Shown here: in pieces, positions 5,622 to 27,711 of the stretch
How positions within the stretch are numbered: the first letter of the stretch is position 1
Layout: each line of letters opens with the position of its first letter
Assembly: GCF_006345805.1 (NCBI RefSeq)
Contig: NW_021832312.1
Location: 1-31,214 of the forward strand
Origin: Octopus sinensis
Taxonomy: Eukaryota
DNA length: 31,214 nt
Reading direction: 5' to 3'
Program-made: the position numbers and the translations under genes
Notes under the pieces: model-generated
What the model was told of the DNA's origin: nothing
Seen by the model: only the letters and a program-made list of their open reading frames with translations
Database searches by the model: none

Positions 5622-6142
5622 ATATTCGTTTCTGCTCTAGGCACAAAGGCACGAAATTTTTAGGGTGAGGTCCATTCGATTTGATCGACACCCAGTACAC
5701 AACTGGTGCTTAATTTATCGACCCCGAAAGGATGAAAGGCAAAATCGACCTCAGTGGAATTTGATCTCAGAACATAAAGACAGATGGAACACCGCTAAGC
5801 ATTTCGCCCAGCGTGCTAACGTTTCTGCAAGCTTGCTGCCTTTAAATATAAATATTCTTTTCTACTCTAGCTAGGCACAAGGCTCGAAATTTTAGGGAGA
5901 AGTCCAGTCGATTAGATCGGCCCCCAGTAAACAACTGGTGCTTAATTTATCGACCCCGAAAGGATGAAAGGCAAAGTCGACCTCAGTGGAATTTGATCTC
6001 AGAAAGTAAAGACAGTCGAAACACCGCTAAGCATTTCGCTCGGCGTGCTAACGTTTCTACCAGCTCGCCACCGTAATTTTATAAGAGGACTATATTCTTT
6101 TCTACTCTAGGCACAAGGCCCGAAATTTTGGGTGAGGGAGCT
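5622..6142 (-). mobile_element. Tandem SINE group A copies (5622-5843, 5851-6073) plus tail fragment (6092-6142)
   Basis: Reverse-complement A body (atcgaccccgaaaggatgaaaggcaaa) with an alternative tail tattcttttctactctag..gcacaagg. Confidence 0.9.
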
Positions 6143-6542: not shown

Positions 6543-6946
6543 TTACTCTCTTTTTACTTGTTTCAGTCATTTGACTGTAGCCATACTGGAGCACCGCCTT
6601 TAGTCGAGTAAATCGACCCAGGACGTATTCTTTGTAAGCCTAATACTTATTCTATCGGTCTCTTTTGCCGAACCGCTAAGTTACGGGGACGTAAACACAC
6701 CAGCATCGGTTGTCAAGCGATGTTGGAGGGACAAACACAGACACAAAAACATGCACACACACATATATATATACATATATACGACGGGCTTCTTTCAGTT
6801 TTCAGTCTACCAAATCCATTCACAAGATTTTTGGTCGGCCCGAGGCTGTAGTAGAAGACACTTGCCCAAGGTTCCACACAGTGGGACTGAACCCGGAACC
6901 ATGTTGTTGGTAAGCAAACTACTTACCACGCAGCCACTCCTACGGC
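6543..6946 (-). mobile_element. tRNA-derived SINE, group B (full length, internal microsatellite)
   Basis: Reverse complement of ggagtggctgcgtggtaagtag..gggttcagtccc..ttgggcaagtgtcttc..ggcggtgctccag..atgactgaaacaagtaaa. Confidence 0.9.
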
Positions 6947-7812: not shown

Positions 7813-7853
7813 AAGAGTATATCAACAGTAATATTATATTTGCTAACATATAT

Positions 7854-8310
7854 GTGCAGGTATGGCAATGTTGTTAAGAAGTTCACTTCGTAACCCCTTG
7901 GTTTCCAGTTCAGTCCCACTGCGTGGCACCATGAGCAAACATTTTCTACTATAGCCCCGGGGATGACCAATGCTTTATCAGTGAATTTCGTAGACAGAAA
8001 CCGTGTAGATGCCTATTGTGTGTGTGTTTGTTTGTTTGTGTGTGTATGTGTGTGTGTATATGTGTGTCTTTGTGTGTGTCTTTGTGTGTGCGTATGTGTG
8101 TTTGCCCCACCATCACGTGAAAGCCGGTACTGTTTTCTTCGTCTCCGTAACCTAGCGGGTCGGCGAAAGAGAACGATAGAACAAGTGCTAAATTTTAAAA
8201 CAATAAGTAAGGGATTCGATTTGTTCGACTAGACCCCTCAAGGACCCTGGGATACTGCCTTGAGGGAGTGACCTATTATGGTTGCAGTCCAATCACTGAA
8301 ACAAATATAA
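7854..8310 (+). mobile_element. SINE group B, diverged
   Basis: gttcagtcccactgcgtggcacc..tagacagaaac..(TG)n..gcagtccaatcactgaaacaa. Confidence 0.85.
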
Positions 8311-11835: not shown

Positions 11836-11865
11836 CATTTTTATGTAAGTTCAATGTTTCATATG

Positions 11866-12570
11866 AAGGCGACAAGCTGACAAGATCATTAGCAGCTCGG
11901 ACAAAATGCTAAGCGGTATTTTCTCCGAGATCGACTTTGCCTTTCATCCTTTCGGGGTCGATAAATTAAGTACCAGTTACGCACTGGGGTCGATGGAATC
12001 GACTTAATACCTATGTCTGTCCTTGTTTGTCCTCTCTATGTTTAGCCCCTTGTGGGTAATAAAGAAATAGGTATTTTCTCCGGTTCTTTACATTCGGAAT
12101 TCAAATCTCACTGAATTCAAATTTGCCTTCCCTCCTTTCGGGGTCGGTAAAATTAAGCACCAATCAAGCACAGAGGTCAATATGATCGACTTGTCCCCTC
12201 CCCTCAAAATTACCTCCCTTGAATTCTATAACCGACTGCTGTCACATTCAAAGGAAGTGTTGTGAGCATGAGCACTTATTTGCCATGAAAACCGAGTAAC
12301 CGGCCTCCATAGCAAGACCATTAGCAGCTTGAACAAAATGCTTAGAGACATTTTTCCGGTTCAAATCCCACAAAAGGCAAATTTGCCTTTCTTCCTTTCG
12401 GGGTCGATAAAATTAAGCACCAACCAAGCATAGGTTGATATGATCGACTTGTCCCACCTACCATCAAAATTTCTGACATTGAACTCTATAACCGACTGGC
12501 GTCGCGTTCAAGGTAAGTATTGTGAACATGGGTACTTATACGCCATGGAAATCGAGTAACCGGTCTTATG
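11866..12570 (+). mobile_element. Composite: old SINE A with a nested 5'-truncated young A (11928-12069), then a second A copy; both old copies are joined to group C-like tails
   Basis: 13-bp TSD ggtattttctccg at 11915-11927 and 12070-12082. 12110-12305 is repeated at 12360-12565 (..gccatg(a/g)aaa(c/t)cgagtaaccgg). Confidence 0.85.
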
Positions 12571-13537: not shown

Positions 13538-13639
13538 CAGGCGTGGCTGTGTGGTAAGAAGCTTGCTTACCTACCACATGGTTCCGGGTTCAGTCCCACT
13601 GCGTGGCACCTTGGACAAGTGTTATTCTACTATAGCTTC
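13538..13639 (+). mobile_element. SINE group B, 5' head only
   Basis: ggcgtggctgtgtggtaag..gggttcagtcccactgcgtggcaccttggacaagtg. Confidence 0.88.
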
Positions 13640-13692
13640 AAGCGTTGAGCCACTCAGCTAAATATTAATAAAAATATACATAAACTCATATT

Positions 13693-13790
13693 TTGAGTTC
13701 TATTTTTCCTGGTTGCATCAACATGCCAATATATGTATCCCTTAATGCATATATTGGCATGTTGATGCAACCGGGAAAAATAGAACTCAA
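13693..13790. repeat. 46-bp near-perfect inverted repeat with a 6-nt loop
   Basis: Arms 13693-13738 and 13745-13790; two mismatches; loop ccctta. Confidence 0.95.
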
Positions 13791-13887
13791 GAATACAACA
13801 AGGAGAAATAGTTAGACTAATGTAGAGCAAACGGAAAACTAGACAGAAGCTATAATGACGGGAAATTAAACAAAGACACGATACACG

Positions 13888-13970
13888 GAATATTCGCAGC
13901 TAAGTTTTTCTCTTCAGTCAATGGCGCAAAATATCATGGTGGTTTCGCGCCATTACCATTGGGACCACTC
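13888..13970 (-). ncRNA. Type III-topology hammerhead-like motif, copy 1
   Basis: GAGUG-GUC-C-CAAUGGU..GCCAUUG-A-CUGAAGA-G..C-GAA-UAUUC; non-canonical GAAU core. Confidence 0.45.
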
Positions 13971-14838
13971 AATTTTGCAGGTGCCAGTGCTGTTATTAAG
14001 CTACTGGGAAAAAGCTAGCGAATGTATACTAAGACAGAAACAAAGAAGCCATTATATAAATACAACAGACAAATAATTATGCATATATAACAGCAGGCAG
14101 CCTTGCGGCTATATACAACAGGAGAAAATATCTAATAATTATATATATACCACAAATACAAGAGAAAGAAATTTGCAACAATCAAACGAACTTAGTGCGG
14201 TTGCGCAAAAATGAAACTGAGTAAGTCCTAGAGGGCGTTGCAGAAGCTCAGACCAGCATGACCAGTCTAGTCAAAGGAAGGGCGAAAAGGAAGACCGCCT
14301 TCGTTGGACATAGGTCATATGGTATGGAAGAGGAAGTGTTGAGAGAGGGAAAGAGAAGCGACAGAGAGAGAGAAAAACAAAGAAAGGTACAAGGGAAGTG
14401 AGCAAGGGCGAAAATAGAGGGTAAAAGTAAAGAAAGAGGAAGAGTCAGAGTAGAGGTAGAAAGAGATAGAGTAAGAGGGAAAGAGGGGGAGACAGAGAGA
14501 GAGAGAACGAAAAAGAAGGGGAGACAGAGAGAGAAGAGAAAGATACAAGGGAGGCAAGTAAGGGCGGAAAGAGAGAGTAGGAGTGGAGAAAGAGATAGAG
14601 TAAGAGTAGAGGTGGAAGGAGGTATAGTAAAAGTAGAGAGAGAGAGTTAAGAGTCGCACAATAAATATTCAAGGAATATTTTTTACAAAAAAAGTAAGCA
14701 AAGGAGGGGAGCGCTGCGCTACCTGGATGTATTAAGAGAAAGAACACAATAAGGAGAACATTTAGACTAAAGCAGAACAAACGGAAAACTAGGCGAAAAC
14801 TTAATAGACAAGAAATTTAGACAACTACACGATACACG

Positions 14839-14919
14839 GAATATTCGTAACTGAGTTTTCCTCGTCAGTCAATGACCCAAAATATCAGTGGTTTTGCGCC
14901 ATTATTATTGAGACCACTC
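14839..14919 (-). ncRNA. Type III-topology hammerhead-like motif, copy 2
   Basis: GAGUG-GUC-UCAAU..AUUGA-CUGACGA-GGAAAACUCAGUUAC-GAA-UAUUC. Confidence 0.5.
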
Positions 14920-15059
14920 AATTTCGTAGGCACCAGTGCTATTAAGCTACTAGGAAAATACTAGAGAACGTATACTATCGTCTACCTTTTCTCTTTGTAT
15001 TCTTTCTGTTCAACCCTTGATACATCCATGTAGCGTAATACACATCCTGTTTGTTTAGC

Positions 15060-15073
15060 TATATATGTATACA

Positions 15074-15128
<55 letters not shown>

Positions 15129-15219
15129 ATATATATATATATATAATATATATATACACTCATACATATATATATATATACACTCATACATATATATATA
15201 TATACACACACTCATACAA

Positions 15220-15250
<31 letters not shown>

Positions 15251-15271
15251 GTATATTATATGTATACACAT

Positions 15272-15338
<67 letters not shown>
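15060..15338. repeat. (TA)n-rich microsatellite
   Basis: Direct reading. Confidence 0.95.
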
Positions 15339-15341
<3 letters not shown>

Positions 15342-15397
15342 TAGGAAATGAAATATACACCATAATCACCATATATAAATTTAATTCGTTCCAATGT

Positions 15398-15710
15398 TTT
15401 CCGGTCCCCGAAGATCACAGACATAATTTTATCTCTAATAGAAATAACTTTATAATGAGCGACAGTTGTATCAGAAATCTTGCAGCTTCACTAACCAGTC
15501 AAACAAAGAACTCGTAAAGCTTCTCATAATTGCAACAAACCTAATATCGCCTTTCATCGGTAAGCACTTTTCTTAAACGTTTGCTTATCGATATAAGTGG
15601 GAAAAAATTTAGGACTTACTGGAAATACCTTTAAAATAGGGTTATTTTGGCATGTGTATACATTCAATCATTCAGATACTCAGGACACTTCAAATTTTCA
15701 CATCTCTATA
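15398..15710 (+). pseudogene. Degenerate Penelope-like ORF fragment (post-RT linker, Cys-rich motif, GIY-YIG N-terminus)
   Basis: [29 protein letters not shown] resembles FP..H.Y.KIFNRN.IK.SYSC..NL. NCNKPNI/PFIGK resembles CNC...CPL.GKC. LGLTGNTFKIGLFWHVYTFNH resembles YIGLT..TFK.R...H..TF.H. Confidence 0.75.
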
Positions 15711-15726
15711 CATTCCAAAATAATTA

Positions 15727-16113
15727 TCTCTACTATAGGCACAAGGCCTTGAAACTTTTGGTGGGAAAGGGGCTAGTCGATTATATTGAACCCAGTACGA
15801 AACTGGTACTTATTTAATCGACCCCGAAAGGATGAAAAACAAAGTCGATATCAGCGGAATTTGAACTCAGAATGCAGCGGCAGACGAAATACCTATTTCT
15901 TTACTACCCACAAGGGGCTAAACACAGCGAGGACAAACGGATTAAGTCGATTACATCGACCCCAGTACGTAACTGGTACTTAATTTATCGACCCCGAAAA
16001 GATGAAAGGCAAAGTCGACCTCGGCGGAATTTGAACTCAGAACGTAACGGCAGACGATATACGGCTACGCATTTCTTCCAGCGTGCTAACGTTTCTGCCC
16101 GTTTGCCGCCTTA
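15727..16113 (-). mobile_element. Composite SINE A: young copy (15894-16113) joined into an older copy (15727-15893)
   Basis: Junction gacgaaatacc|tatttctttact; two A bodies but only one head. Confidence 0.9.
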
Positions 16114-16418
16114 GATCCCAAAATAATAAAATCAATTGGTCATTATAGAACCTTCGACCTCCTGTACTGATGGCACAAGAAGATGTGACTATTCTCTCTC
16201 GGAGGGATATCCCATTTCATTAAAAATTTCCCCAATTTTGTACAAAAGACCGGAAATTTTGAATACTTGCGGACATTCCCATCGATTTTTATTGAAGAAT
16301 TTCGAACTGACCAAAACAGTTTATATTCCTCATAATGGATTCGCCATGTTGAAAGGTGTTTACATATCGACAAAAAAAAAAAATTAATGTTTATTAGCAT
16401 TGATATCTCACCAACAAT

Positions 16419-16633
16419 AAGGCGGCGAGCCGATAAAATCGTTTGCATGCCGGACAAAACACTTAGCTGCATTTTGTCTGTTTTTACGTTCTGTTTTCAA
16501 ATTCCGTCGAAGTCAACTCTGCCTTTCATTCTTTTGGTTTTGATAAAATTAGTCCCATTTGAACAATGGCATCGATGTAATCAACGTACTCGTTCCCAAA
16601 ATTGCCGGCCTTGTACCAAAATTTGAAATCAAC
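16419..16633 (+). mobile_element. SINE group A (older tail) with probable TSD
   Basis: Full head and body, flanked by tcaccaacaata and tcactaacaata. Confidence 0.85.
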
Positions 16634-16792
16634 ATTTTCACTAACAATAGCTGCCGGCTTTATCAAAAAGGCAATATCTCCTGAGCGAGCCTGCTTTAGT
16701 TGATGACAGAAGAAACATCATTTTGTCTGCTAAGGAATTTATGCATGCATGTATGTATGTATGTATGCATGTATGTATGTATGTATGTATGT

Positions 16793-16895
16793 GTGGAGGC
16801 ACATGGTCTAGGGGTTAGAGCAGCGGACTCGCGGTCGAGGGATCGTGGGTTCGAATCTCAGACCGGGCGATGTGTGTGTTTATGAGCGAAACACC
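16793..16895 (+). mobile_element. SINE group C head type 2, 3'-truncated
   Basis: Homologous to 7492-7595. Confidence 0.85.
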
Positions 16896-16896
16896 T

Positions 16897-17100
16897 GGCC
16901 ATCGAAAAGATTGCTCGAGCATTTTTTCGATGGCCTGATAACTGAAGAGATGGTGGCATGGGTTTCCGGCCCGATATCCGAAACTCGGAGTTTTACTATG
17001 GCTACCGAATAATTGTCACATATGATATTTACAAATAAATTCCTCTATTTACATAACATCGAGGTCTCTTTCAATCTTTTGTTGTCTTATCATTTTTATC
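16897..17100 (+). mobile_element. Penelope-like terminal repeat: palindrome (16897-16935), hammerhead, AATAAA tail
   Basis: ggccatcgaaaagattgctc|gagcattttttcgatggcc, then a hammerhead, then aataaa at ~17034. Confidence 0.65.
16937..16998 (+). ncRNA. Type I hammerhead ribozyme
   Basis: UAA-CUGAAGA-GAU..GGG/CCC..AUC-C-GAAA-CUC-G-GAG-UU-UUA. The core is intact, stem III is ACUC/GAGU and stem I is short. Confidence 0.65.
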
Positions 17101-17105
17101 ATATA

Positions 17106-17462
17106 CTAGCAGTATCGCCCGGCGTTGCTCGGGTTTGTTTCGACCCGCTGGAATTGTAATTTTGAAAAGTAAAAATTTTGTGAACATTTTTCTGGTCGAA
17201 ATACACCGAAAAGTGGCGACACAGCAGTGAAAAAATCGTAAAAAATAGGGATTTTCATAGAAAAAAGCATCTTTTTGATGTAAATAATTTTTGGTGTTAA
17301 CATGGTCCGATTGAATTTTATGTTCTACGGAAGGAAGAGCAACCCTTCTTCTATCATACTCTCAATTTTGGTCAACTTGCGCCGCAGGGTCTCGGAGGAG
17401 ATAGTGTTAGTTGAAGGTTACCAAACGTGGCGCACACAGACAACTTTAGCTTTATATAGAGA
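17106..17462 (-). mobile_element. Non-autonomous Helitron-like element
   Basis: The minus strand begins A|TCTCTATATAAAG and ends cccgagcaacgccggg (hairpin) cgatactg CTAG|T. This gives a 5' TC, a 3' CTAG, a subterminal hairpin, an AT target and no TSD. Confidence 0.85.
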
Positions 17463-18654
17463 TAACACACACACATTAATACACATACATAGACACACAC
17501 ACACATGTATGTATGGATGTATATATGGGTACTGTATCGCAGAGTGGTCCCGGTTGCGCACACGCGGATTCGCGCGTGCGAGCCAGACGTAGGTACTCGA
17601 TACTCGATCGCCCTTAAATAATTATTTTTTTTTACAGAAACGCGAACGTATATAACGCGCAAAATTATTCCGTAGAATTTATCAAATTAAATAACGCAAA
17701 ATTAATATATTTTTTGAAATTGCAAATTATTTAGAATATAAAAATCTGGCTGCTATTTCTAGGTGCTTGAGTAACAACCTCGCGGATTTACAGATAAATG
17801 AATTAATTACTATTTTACAGAATAAAATTAAATAATTCTTGAAAATTAATTAATATTAATATTTTTTGAACAAAGTAAATAATTTTTAAAACTTAAATAA
17901 TAATTGTTTTTACACAAACGCGAACGGGGAAAAGGGGGTGGCGAATTCGATTTTTTTATTTTCGTTGAATGAATAGAAAAAATGTATAATATATGTTGTA
18001 CATACCTAAATTTATTCTTTTTCATGACATTGTAGCAAAATAGTAGTGAATTATATAAATACCAGCAGTACATTTTTTTTTCTGGGGTATTTTTTTTCAA
18101 CCTCGTCACATATTTGCCCCTTTCAATATAAACAAAGTCTTAATTAAGCAATTACGGCAGCTTAGCAATGGTTTCAATACAGGCGTGACATCTGTATCTC
18201 AATTGTTCAAAACCCTTGGAATTTTTTCGCACGTGATGATATCATAGTGAAAACTTTCAATTACGCGCGCTTAGAAGTACGCTCGCAAATTAATTTGAAG
18301 TTCGCGCTCCGCTTGTGTGTGTGTGTGTGTGCGTGCTTTAGATGTACGTAGGTATGTGTTTTTGTGTGTGTGTGTCACTGAAGCCATACATACATAATAT
18401 AATACATAACCCCTCTCTCTCTCTTTTCTCTCTCAGTCACTCACTACAAAAAGTGAATAAAAAAGTTCAGTTATTTCTGTCTTTCACTCTCTCTGTCTCT
18501 TTACACACACTAACAAAATCACTTCACTTACACCCCACAATTCTGTGTCGCACACCCATCAAACACACACACACACACACACACACACCACACACACACA
18601 TCACGCACGCACCACACATGTACATCAATGCTTTCGGAGTGAAATGTTAAAATA

Positions 18655-19372
18655 TTGAGTTTTCTCGAATTTTGTCTTAATTGGGGGTGAAATTGAAAGA
18701 AATTTGTTATGGCATGACCGAATGGAGTACTTTGAAAATCTTAGGTAAACTCTAATTGAAGAAATTGTGTGAGGAGTAAATCGTTATGTATTTATTTGTT
18801 TCTGTTTGCTGTGTTTTTTATTTTCTTGAGTAGTGGTTTAAGGTACACTTGCAAAGAGAAAGTGGGAGAAATTATGTTGATAGCATGAGTGATCCGTTTT
18901 ATAGAAATACTTTCAGTTTAGTCTTCCTCAAATCACTCTGTCGCTATTTACTCTCTTCCAAGAACATTTTCACTCACTCTTATCTCTTAGCTTGCCATAC
19001 ATTTTACTCATGTATCTATCAGCGTGATAGACAGAAACAAATATTACATCGCCATCGCCATCGCCATCGCATTCTATTGTCTACCTGTCAACACACACAC
19101 AGTGAATTACTTTCACTTTATTCGTTGCACACTGTGTGTGCGGTGCGTGTGGTGTAAACCACATTAAGAAAAGCATTTGACATACACACCAGAATGTGAG
19201 TTCTGTAAATTTTGCTTAATTGGAGTTTAAATTTTAAAAACTGGACCTGGCATGACCCGATGCATTCTACTCTTAAAAATGCTAGGTAAATTGTAATTGA
19301 AGAAATCCTATGTTGTAGATTTCTATAAGTGACCAAGGGAGGCAGATAAAATCTGCCTTTTATAATAAGAGA
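18655..19372 (-). mobile_element. Probable Helitron-like 5' portion with an internal ~130-bp direct repeat (18657-18790, 19197-19327)
   Basis: The minus strand starts A|TCTCTTATTATAAAAGGCAG, like the 17462 terminus. The 3' CTAG end was not found. Confidence 0.5.
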
Positions 19373-19549
19373 TATAATGCAGACGGACATTACTTCCTAG
19401 AGTGAGTCTCTCTGGATTTGTTTTTCTAAAAACGATATATATGTGGGTAGGGGTGTATATATATATACATATTGTTGTTTTTGTCCTGTTATTACTATTA
19501 TTGTTTTTTGTATTTATATTCGTGTGGCATCGTCCGTTTTTCTGTCCTT

Positions 19550-19760
19550 GTTTCGTATACATTCGATCCTTTTTCCAAGAAATCTAATGCTCGTAGCTTA
19601 GGTTATCCTTGGGGCTGGCCAGATCGGAGAAATCTCAAGATTAATCAGCCGAAATTGCGAGGATGATCCGGTTCTAGACTGAAGATTAGAGGCTTCGAAT
19701 GACCCGTCCGTTTTCGTATCGTCTATTTGAACGTTTTGCGTTCTTGTCCCATTTTATATA
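19550..19760 (+). mobile_element. Third, more diverged copy of the 13.8/14.8-kb hammerhead-like repeat
   Basis: gtatacattcg..ttttcc..tctcaa..taat..gaaa..gactgaaga..cgaat is colinear with the reverse complement of 13870-14030. Confidence 0.6.
19625..19706 (+). ncRNA. Type III-topology hammerhead-like motif, copy 3
   Basis: CGGAGAA-AUC-UCAAGA..UCUAGA-CUGAAGA-UUAGAGGCUUC-GAA-UGACCCG. Confidence 0.4.
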
Positions 19761-19764
19761 TTTT

Positions 19765-19779
19765 TTATACATAATATAT

Positions 19780-19812
<33 letters not shown>

Positions 19813-19873
19813 CACATATAATATATATATATAATATATATATATGATATATGTATGCATATGTATATATATA

Positions 19874-19935
<62 letters not shown>

Positions 19936-19990
19936 ATATATATATATATACATATATATACACAATATATATAATATATATAATATATAT
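19765..19990. repeat. (TA)n-rich microsatellite
   Basis: Direct reading. Confidence 0.95.
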
Positions 19991-20341
19991 ATTATATAAA
20001 AGGGCTTAGTAAAATAAATACTTTGCCGCATACTGAACTCATTAAAATAGCAGCTAAAAAACTTTTTTAAAGCTATTTCTAAACTTAAAGAAAATCTCTC
20101 TCATATATAGTGTTTGCTTAATTCAACTCACAAAAGTTTGGGGGTAAGGACATCGAAAAATCAAATGCTTTTTCGATGTCCTTACCCCCAAACTTTTGTG
20201 AGTTGAATTAAGCAAACACTATATATGAGAGAGATTTTCTTTAAGTATTAGAAATAGCTTTAAAAAAGTTTTTTAGCTGCTATTTCTAATGAGTTCAGTA
20301 TGCGGCAAAGTAATTTATTTTACTAAGCCCTTTTATATAAT
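19991..20341. repeat. 170/173-bp inverted repeat with an 8-nt loop (inverted duplication of a Penelope-like tail; the + arm's sequence continues to ~20435)
   Basis: Arms 19991-20160 and 20169-20341 differ by three 1-nt indels by eye; loop tcaaatgc; homologous to 695-800. Confidence 0.95.
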
Positions 20342-20430
20342 GTATAATTTGAATTCGCCTTGAATGGTCCCTTTGCATACTGAACACTGGTGAATTGATA
20401 ATAATTAATTAATTTTGCCCTCAATTGTTG

Positions 20431-20434
<4 letters not shown>

Positions 20435-20461
<27 letters not shown>

Positions 20462-20720
20462 GATATATGTATGCATATGTATATATAATATTTATATATA
20501 TATTATATATATATATATATATATACATATATATACACCACACACATATATATATATATATATAATATATATATATATGATATATGTATGCATATGTATA
20601 TATATATATATATATTATATATGTATATATATATATCTAGATATATATATATATACATATATATAATATATTTATACACACACACATACAATCATATATC
20701 CATACATACAGAGAGACAGA

Positions 20721-24253: not shown

Positions 24254-24419
24254 AGGCGCAGGAGTGGTTGTGTGGTAAGTAGCTTGCTAACCAACCACAT
24301 GGTTCCGGGTTCAGTCTCACTGCGTGGCATCTTGGGCAAGTGTCTTCTGCTATAGCCCCGGGCCGACCAATGCCTTGTGAGTGGATTTGGTAGACGGAAA
24401 CTGAAAGAAGCCTGTCGTA

Positions 24420-25453: not shown

Positions 25454-25688
25454 AAGGCGGCGAGCTGGCAGAAACGTTAGCACGTCGGACGAATTGCGTA
25501 GCCGTATTTCCTCTGCCGTTACGTTCTGAGTTCAAATTCCGCCGAGGTCGACTTTTCCTTTCATCCTTTCGGGGTCGATTAATTAAGTACCAGTTACGCA
25601 CTGGGGTCGATGTAATCGACTTAATACCTATGTCTGTCCTTGTTTGTCCCCTCTGTGTTTAGCCCCTTGTGGGTAATAAAGAAATAGG
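25454..25688 (+). mobile_element. Young full-length SINE A with a perfect 17-bp TSD
   Basis: ggttcgagagggaaagg at 25441-25457 and 25687-25703. Confidence 0.95.
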
Positions 25689-25721
25689 TTCGAGAGGGAA
25701 AGGGTGATTGAAATTAATAAG

Positions 25722-26134: not shown

Positions 26135-26573
26135 TTGGCTTCAAATTCTGGCATAAGATCAGCAATTCTAGGATCAGTAATTTCGGGATTTTGTCGACTC
26201 CCCCGTATTCAAATGGTACTTGTTTTATAGACCCAGATGAAAGGATGAAAGGCAAAATGGACCTCGGCAGAATTTGACCTCAGAAAGTAAAACATGGATG
26301 TAATGCCGCTAAGTATTTTGTCCGGTATGCTAACGATTCTTATTTCTTTATTGCCCACAGGGGGCTAAACATAGAGGGAACAAACAAGGACAGACAAACG
26401 GATTAAGTCGATTACATCGACCCCAGTGCATAACTGATACTTAATTTATCGACCTCGAAAGGATGAAAGGCAAAGTCGACCTCGGCGGAATTTGAACTCA
26501 GAACGTAACGGCAGACGAAATACCGCTAAGCATTTCGCCCGGTGTGCTAACATTTCTGCCAGCTTGCCGCCTT
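26135..26573 (-). mobile_element. Composite SINE A: young copy (26341-26573) inside an older copy
   Basis: Junction gctaacgattct|tatttcttta. Confidence 0.9.
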
Positions 26574-26589
26574 TAGTGAAGTGAAATAT

Positions 26590-27013
26590 TGCTTTCAAAT
26601 TTTGGCACAAGGCTAGCAATTTTCGTGGGAAGAATTAAGTCGATTATATCGACCCCAGTATTCAACTGGTACTTATTTTATCGGACCCCGAAAAGATGAA
26701 AGGCGAAGTCAACCTGGGCAGACATTGAACTTAGAACGGAAAGATGAACGCTAAGCATTTTGCCCGGCGTACCAACGATTCTTATGTCTTTATTGCCCAC
26801 AAGGGGCTAAACATAGAGAGGACAAACAAGGACAGATAAAAGGGTTACGTCGATTACATCGACCCCAGTGCGTAACTGGTACTTAGTTTATCGACCCCGA
26901 AAGGATGAAAGGCAAAGTCGACCTCGGCGGAACTTGAACTCAGAACGTAGCGGCAGACGAAATACCGCTAAGCATTTCGCCAGGCATGCTAACGTTTCTG
27001 CCAGCTCGCCATC
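26590..27013 (-). mobile_element. Composite SINE A: young copy (26783-27013) inside an older copy
   Basis: Junction ccaacgattct|tatgtcttta; flanked by ttagtgaagtgaaatatt and ttagtaaagtgaaatatt. Confidence 0.9.
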
Positions 27014-27711
27014 TTTAGTAAAGTGAAATATTAATTGACAACGATGATATTTTATTAGCGGATCACACAAATGATTAGTTTCACAATTATGCTAAAAAAA
27101 AGTAATTGGTTATTAAATAGAGTTGTAATTTATTACAACCACGTCTGAGATTAATGGTTTGTTACAAAGATAGGAGTTATATGAGGGTTAATTTTAAAAC
27201 AGTAGAAATAGATTTAAATGTGTAACACTGTGAAGAGGTTAACGTTTTTAAAAAAATCAGAAACACGCAACTGTAATAGAGAGAGTGTTTAAACAATTAA
27301 TTTCAGAAGATTAATATAAAAAATTTATATCTGATAAGGTGTGGGGGAAAATGAGACGAGGAAGTGACATAAAAAAAAATATCTTAGTTGAAGTTAAAAT
27401 GTTTAGAAATCAGATTGGATTTCATTTTAAACGGTTTCCTAGTACAAACGAATGTGAAAAATATATGTGAGGAAATACCTTTAAGCCTATTTCGTTGATG
27501 AGGGAAATATATAAGGTTAGATTCCTTTTTGGCTTTTTTGTGTGTGTTTTTTTATGATGAAGTTCCGGAAGTAATTACTTCGGTTTGTTGTTTGGAATAG
27601 AAGAGCGAGAAATGATGGAAGACACGCTATAGCAGAGACTAGTGTTGAGGAAGAAAAATCACACACACACACACATATTATATATATATATATATAATAT
27701 ATATGTAAATT

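Follow-up and report, generated by a model that had tools for sequence, protein, structure and literature searches.

Hammerhead ribozymes of types SGC and CSG cleave in vitro (Eckert et al., 2023; PMC10085705), and Naiads, which belong to the Penelope-like elements (PLEs), have been described as lacking a canonical hammerhead and holding only 'half cores', the cephalopod ones included (Craig et al., 2021; PMC8557442). Here and below, both papers are cited for the sections covered in this analysis. We examined a 31,214-nucleotide stretch of Octopus sinensis DNA (NCBI RefSeq assembly GCF_006345805.1, contig NW_021832312.1, positions 1 to 31,214; the window), in which an earlier note had proposed a type III hammerhead variant with a GAAU core at three sites. 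Comparison of related repeats suggests with good confidence that the three sites are decayed copies of a hammerhead-type fold with non-circular strand order S-G-C, opened between A9 and G10.1, which would likely cut Naiad-type Penelope-like transcripts after NUH.

Three sites in two abundant repeat families

CUGANGA, NUC, stem I, a spacer and CGAAU are present at all three sites, at the positions and on the strands first reported (13888-13970 and 14839-14919, minus; 19625-19706, plus), within a part of the 2.7-Gb genome that is rich in microsatellites. Copies 1 and 2 are members of one repeat family, A, whose best relatives are 80-85% identical, and form a partial tandem of an approximately 950-nt unit with a motif spacing of 951 nt. 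Copy 3 belongs to the younger family B (94-96% identity, 3,250 first-look candidates). The proposal of a hammerhead-type RNA under selection that standard models miss was borne out: in an Rfam scan of the window none of the 150 matches listed, out of 179, was a hammerhead, copy 1 gave 0 matches, and a less mutated family B copy gave 2 chance small nucleolar RNA matches and no hammerhead.

The pattern GACTGANGAN{6,22}CGAATG had 12,171 matches in the genome (G000) compared to 99 for the reversed control, and the motif is therefore real and abundant. The pattern CGAAA..GACTGANGA had 17,324 matches (1,308 for the control), and a pattern of S-G-C order had 2,065 (5 for the control). The motif is carried by more than 10,000 Penelope-like repeats of this genome that lack an open reading frame (ORF). 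Most loci were sampled by patterns that demand the core, families A and B by BLAST. Pairing was scored in 128 copies, the loci passing a parser (5'-truncated and more damaged copies were dropped or scored as misses, and a few chance matches are included), and covariation in 16 clusters, which are multi-copy subfamily consensuses. Pairs were counted by a script anchored on the core, because in a MAFFT alignment of 30 copies the family D and Naiad rows had block S displaced by two columns.

Strand order and catalytic core

Subfamily comparison placed the canonical CGAAA inside the supposed loop I, and the bases that follow it complement those before NUH. The resulting stem III pairs AGUGGU/ACCACU in family A, GCGAU/AUUGC in family B and UACGU/ACGUA in family D, and a further version has one additional pair on both sides. 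The order is thus site, GAAA block and CUGANGA block, and therefore the non-circular type SGC order of Eckert et al. (PMC10085705). This displaces the type III topology, since the canonical GAAA block sits 5' of CUGANGA, and the A thought to be missing from the core lies in an intact GAAA upstream, inside the stem I loop. A type III hammerhead with a GAAU core short of one A would account for stem I, NUH and CUGANGA as described, and GAGUG/UAUUC can pair in family A. However, its stem III reaches 5 bp only in the 3 family A clusters and 1-3 bp in the other 8 CGAAU clusters, 5 of 16 clusters have no CGAAU, and the NUH strand that it would use is 95% paired to the strand of the internal GAAA; we consider this model very improbable.

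Over the 16 consensuses, the first five pairs of stems I, II and III show 99%, 100% and 95% pairing, compared to 69%, 55% and 63% when partner strands were swapped between distinct helices. The observed pairing was reached by 0, 2 and 0 of 5,000 shuffles, counts that are not probabilities because the subfamilies are related, and whose meaning is also limited by the sampling with patterns. Nearly all outer stem positions show two to four different standard pairs among the clusters, and 10.1-11.1 is G-C and 16.1-15.1 is U-A in 16/16. The core CUGANGA, GAAA and U16.1-H17 is present in 16/16 clusters, an invariance partly built in because most loci were sampled by core-demanding patterns, and is intact in window copies 1 and 3. 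H17, when located anew with no base required there, is C or A, and N7 takes all four bases. The covariation claimed for stem I extends to stems II and III, and all three adjoin the core, with G10.1-C11.1, as in a hammerhead.

Stem I itself is fully paired in the family majorities (UCAAUGA/UCAUUGA in A, UCAAGA/UCUUGA in B); the mismatches described earlier are there, but as private mutations of the window copies that are repaired in these majorities. The claim that the core is conserved against diverged flanks did not hold among 37 individual family A copies (0.92 versus 0.90). Copies decay after insertion, so that the family A core stands barely above its flanks and the signal lies between subfamilies. 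A chance resemblance in a decayed repeat would agree with a family A core no better kept than its flanks, but the paired changes in four helices, across subfamilies and phyla, already refute it, and its probability is practically negligible.

Stem II, the added helices and the predicted fold

From 5' to 3', the proposed ribozyme would consist of a P0 strand, the P1 hairpin, the stem II 5' strand, Pb, the stem III strand with UH, the cut and a stem I strand, followed by stem II'-GAAA-stem III', Pb', stem I'-CUGANGA and P0'. Hammerhead chemistry predicts cleavage 3' of H17. The predicted cuts in the window (13963/13962 and 14912/14911, minus; 19634/19635, plus) fall at the NUC where the earlier note had placed them. 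The copies and their parts are as follows.

13790-14980, minus: family A ORF-less Penelope-like repeat, a partial head-to-tail tandem of an approximately 950-nt unit and the preceding unit's 3' end (951-nt spacing; 920-1120-nt alignments to other loci)
13892-14024, minus: ribozyme domain of copy 1 (family A), core intact, a single mismatch in stem I and a single one in stem II (direct sequence reading)
14013-14024, minus: copy 1, 5' strand of outer helix P0, partner 13892-13901 (family A clusters)
13985-14006, minus: copy 1, hairpin P1, adjoining G10.1 (sequence; cluster 16 fold)
13980-13984, minus: copy 1, stem II 5' strand (10.1-10.5), supplied from upstream (pairing counts)
13972-13979, minus: copy 1, 5' strand of Pb, the stem I-II interaction helix, 8 bp with 13925-13932 (paired changes in family A)
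13956-13968, minus: copy 1, block S, with stem III strand, U16.1-C17 and stem I strand; predicted cut 13963/13962 (pair counts)
13939-13951, minus: copy 1, block G, with stem II 3' strand, GAAA (13946-13943) and stem III strand (pair counts)
13911-13924, minus: copy 1, block C, with stem I strand and CUGAAGA, no stem II after it (pairing analysis)
13892-13901, minus: copy 1, P0 3' strand, including the CGAAU earlier called core (pairing and folds)
14843-14975, minus: ribozyme domain of copy 2 (family A), with A in place of G12 at 14895; predicted cut 14912/14911 (sequence)
14981-15060, plus: inverted fragment from the end/tail of family A, located at the 5' junction and followed by (TA)n (query 4-86 aligned to other copies with the orientation reversed)
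19473-19775, plus: family B repeat, 5'-truncated copy flanked by (TA)n tracts (alignment)
19560-19701, plus: ribozyme domain of copy 3, core intact, private mismatches in stems I and III and in Pb (sequence, folds)
19560-19566/19695-19701, plus: copy 3, P0; P1 at 19575-19612 (sequence, folds)
19613-19618/19645-19650, plus: copy 3, stem II; Pb at 19619-19626/19664-19671 and stem I at 19635-19640/19673-19678 (sequence, folds)
19634/19635, plus: copy 3, predicted cut; GAAA at 19651-19654 and CUGAAGA at 19679-19685 (sequence)

The three window copies are decayed relics: copies 1 and 3 have stem mismatches, and copy 2 is likely dead because of its G12A change.

Stem II had been called weak; its partner strand lies approximately 22 nt upstream of the cut (21-29 nt before it among the subfamilies) and gives 5-6 bp in 16/16 clusters, always starting with G-C, for example GGCUG/CAGCC, GCGCC/GGCGC, GAAGG/CCUUC and GACACC/GGUGUC. 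With this strand, taken as the best match within a 22-nt window, at least 5 bp form in 98/128 copies, compared to 2/128 for a control window. A stem II of at least 5 bp starting 0-2 nt after A9 was found in 0/128 copies (4 bp in 19/128), and within 22 nt downstream in 6/128; A9 is thus not joined directly to stem II. A plain type-SGC hammerhead would instead build stem II with the bases right after CUGANGA, the upstream strand being a competing inhibitory helix (a folding switch). Indeed, 3-4 bp starting one base beyond A9 are possible in family D, as is GGCU/AGCC, 5 nt beyond A9, in family B-like clusters, and at least 4 bp are available within 22 nt downstream in 78/128 copies, mostly in family B-like clusters. 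Yet none of the 128 copies reaches 5 bp beside A9, several subfamilies have only 1 bp there, the G-C-initiated upstream pairing is found in every cluster, and those downstream bases pair in P0, which leaves the plain form a slim chance.

The split fold has further helices. Pb comes after the 5' strand of stem II and pairs immediately ahead of stem I'; it forms between the expected strands in 13/16 clusters, and in 3 the search picked the stem II strand. A further subfamily (L033:2937-3021, minus) has an 11-bp Pb helix and C at +1. The CGAAU once taken for the core pairs with the upstream AUUCG as the far part of the outer helix P0, and the chain is therefore opened between A9 and G10.1. Family D has no CGAAU, and its G-run can pair with an upstream C-run instead; this family (L167-L196, e.g. 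L192:1468-1554, plus) consists of young 850-880-nt tandem units with the same split layout. In constrained folds with the core held open, the P1 hairpin ends 0-1 nt before G10.1 in 13/16 and P0 forms in 10/16. P1 is predicted to stack on G10.1 and P0 to leave from A9, as a four-way junction inserted at A9/G10.1 that would keep A9 beside G10.1 while the RNA ends exit via P0. Sequence comparison of the subfamilies shows all core nucleotides as well as stems I, II, III and Pb, with paired changes.

Other assignments were rejected. A type-I/dimer reading based on the palindrome that follows CGAA agrees only partly with family A and does not fit family B; the C-G-S order with palindromic vestigial stem III of PLE type-I/minimal hammerheads was not found; and the U15.1-A16.1 core variant, as described in the sections of PMC3088659 covered, does not apply. 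Several ordinary minimal type-I hammerhead families coexist in the genome (L007, L015, L019, L028, L113), and window positions 16938-16995 (plus) may hold a type-I PLE hammerhead remnant with CUGAAGA, stem II, GAAA, a 3-bp stem III (1-nt loop) and UU.

Truncation of genomic copies at the predicted cut

If templates were cut at the predicted site, many inserted copies would begin there. Exact fusions to (TA)n numbered 53 genome-wide at +1/+2 and 9 at -1 to -3, although the latter positions have more microhomology. In a tally made by hand of 95 distinct truncated loci among the first 100 of 1,017 matches, 21 junctions were at +1, 6 were ambiguous, 39 were at +2 to +11, and 29 were spread over 45 upstream positions (-4 to -48). 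An overlapping sample had 27 junctions at or after the cut, 1 ambiguous and 3 before it. The step is indirect evidence, being the pattern that a cleaved template would give; structure stalling and TA microhomology could contribute to it.

The same junctions bear on a conserved but non-catalytic (or only protein-helped) fold, which would be a binding or packaging signal for the reverse transcriptase (RT), truncations arising as the enzyme stalls at the pseudoknot. The interrupted core, the 39/95 junctions at +2 to +11 with AT-rich microhomology, and the poor in vitro cleavage by PLE minimal hammerheads (PMC4209133) speak for it. On the other side, all catalytic positions, the NUH rule and the free N7 are kept, and between the two sides of the predicted scissile bond, which lies midway along the S strand, the junction count drops approximately six-fold; we give this explanation a small but real chance.

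In the expression data, no listed sequencing run holding the repeat was recorded as RNA. Four runs guessed as RNA contain family B as contigs, and family B occurs in organisms coded A-D. A rise in depth 3' of the cut is no evidence either way because it is also seen in four large runs of unrecorded kind.

Host elements and the probable link to Naiads

The repeat units are ORF-less, 710-950 nt long and located in (TA)n, with tandems, inverted 5' pieces and a short tail, as in the anatomy of Penelope-like elements (PMC8557442; PMC11167929, for the sections covered). The (TA)n insertion, partial tandems, inverted 5' pieces and tail are Naiad traits, but not diagnostic of Naiads, because they are common to other PLE clades. 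Within a 3.3-kb tandem no ORF was found, no RT motif was found upstream of 12 plus 20 Naiad-motif loci, and upstream extension in search of an autonomous partner of families A and B found nothing. Pfam on 16 frames gave one weak GIY-YIG match, which probably stems from a separate element. A Naiad ORF has its GIY-YIG at the N-terminus and its RT at the C-terminus; the GIY-YIG ORF behind one copy (L058/L061) probably belongs to another element, because its nuclease comes after the RT motifs and the ORF follows a TA tract. At L061:3292-4899 (plus) and at L065, a family B copy is followed by (TA)n and a 5'-truncated PLE ORF (RT end and C-terminal GIY-YIG), an adjacency that probably reflects shared TA targeting. 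Helitron-like and Pif1 helicase fragments lie beside copies at L045:264-1595 and L007:83-571.

As the units have no ORF, we infer the Naiad clade of the window families, and a Naiad enzyme would have moved families A and B. The link comes from File S5 of PMC8557442, of which chance-sampled passages, covering a minority of the 54 Naiad consensuses, were read by eye. There, ctenophore, cnidarian and cephalopod Naiads show the same split layout in unrelated sequence. Its stems I, II, III and Pb all pair in Naiad_Bfor (where stem I has only 2 bp), in a Clytia Naiad, in Naiad_Amil and Anas (Aacu has 2 mismatches), and in Naiad-2_Movir, Naiad_Obim and Naiad_Ovul; Naiad_Esco has the layout imperfectly. 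P0 and P1 are visible in the Amil and Movir-2 Naiads, whereas Naiad_Omin and Naiad_Adux showed no split fold over their last ~600 nt. The ends of two nematode Naiads (File S5 part 13; Naiad-1_Nbra) read as complete type-CSG hammerheads, again with the Pb helix. In G000 the motif of the cephalopod Naiads was counted 245 times.

Neighbouring repeats in the window

Directly 3' of the family A and family B copies lie palindromic stretches (13689-13795 and 19766-20631). A second repeat piece resembling a short interspersed nuclear element (SINE) is present at 13538-13636 and also at 6842-6941, 7853-7955 and 24259-24356. A 236-nt SINE-like repeat has approximately ten copies on both strands:

1338-1573, 1759-1994, 5655-6068, 11837-12072, 15925-16106, 16419-16654, 25454-25689 and 26341-27016, both strands: copies of the 236-nt SINE-like repeat

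Weighing of the proposed split hammerhead and its implications

Several points, besides the limits given above with the core invariance, the shuffles, the choice of stem II partner and the hand tally, count against a split hammerhead of Naiad origin. None of the three window copies is free of mismatches, and G12 is lost from copy 2. P0 is missing from 6/16 folds and starts 5-10 nt after A9 in 6 of the 10 that form it, and family D can form a G-U-rich stem II of 3-4 bp right after A9. No ORF was found on families A or B or upstream of 20 Naiad-motif loci. Eckert et al. assume that block C cannot be interrupted (PMC10085705), and the literature covered has no tested precedent for such an interruption.

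Naiads across animal phyla probably use an active hammerhead wired outside the six permutations regarded as possible, non-circular, in which the catalytic strand is detached from stem II and a four-way junction docks it again; with the nematode CSG form it would represent one cyclic fold opened at different points, the in vivo cut being recorded in the 5' ends of genomic copies. If true, this would overturn the published view of Naiads without hammerheads, would give animal genomes more than 10,000 copies of non-circularly permuted ribozymes, hitherto known from metatranscriptomes and metagenomes, and would contradict the assumption that CUGANGA has to continue directly into stem II. The truncation step makes a hammerhead role in Penelope-like retrotransposition directly testable, the A9/G10.1 opening would be a new place to attach sequence in ribozyme design, and the split layout supplies a descriptor for motifs missed by current searches.

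Comparison with known systems

Type-SGC hammerheads (HRIMA-1 and variants; Eckert et al., 2023, PMC10085705) have in common with the window form the S-G-C order, the canonical core, a short linker between the stem I and stem II strands and a helix that links stems I and II at their far sides. In contrast, in the window form the stem II 5' strand and its Pb half precede block S, block C is split at A9/G10.1, and P0 and P1 are added. Type-SGC is known from metatranscriptomes, with none in genomes of known organisms according to the sections covered, whereas the window form is one of animal retroelements. The window form is not filed as type-SGC, because its block C is interrupted. Type-CSG, published from only two metagenomic sequences, to which the two nematode Naiad ends are added here, has the same cyclic strand order but keeps CUGANGA joined to stem II, while the window form is opened inside that block.

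Naiad PLEs (PMC8557442) resemble the window families in (TA)n targets, partial tandems, inverted 5' pieces and short tail, and several carry the fold. They differ in that the window families have no ORF and that the paper, as far as covered, reports only 'half cores'. The search of open papers turned up neither the split form nor any permuted hammerhead described from Naiads.

PLE type-I/minimal hammerheads also lie near the 3' end of a Penelope-like repeat, and often have one extra base between 9 and 10.1, where the window form opens, so that A9/G10.1 is a plausible opening point. They have the C-G-S order, a vestigial stem III and a need for dimers, whereas the window form has a full stem III of 4-7 bp and would act as a monomer. 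Non-LTR (long terminal repeat) retrozymes (Li et al., 2026, 10.64898/2026.07.22.740005, for the sections covered) are likewise ORF-less tandem hammerhead units from Penelope-like elements; they are defined by type-I hammerheads, whereas the window units have no type-I order and carry a permuted form.

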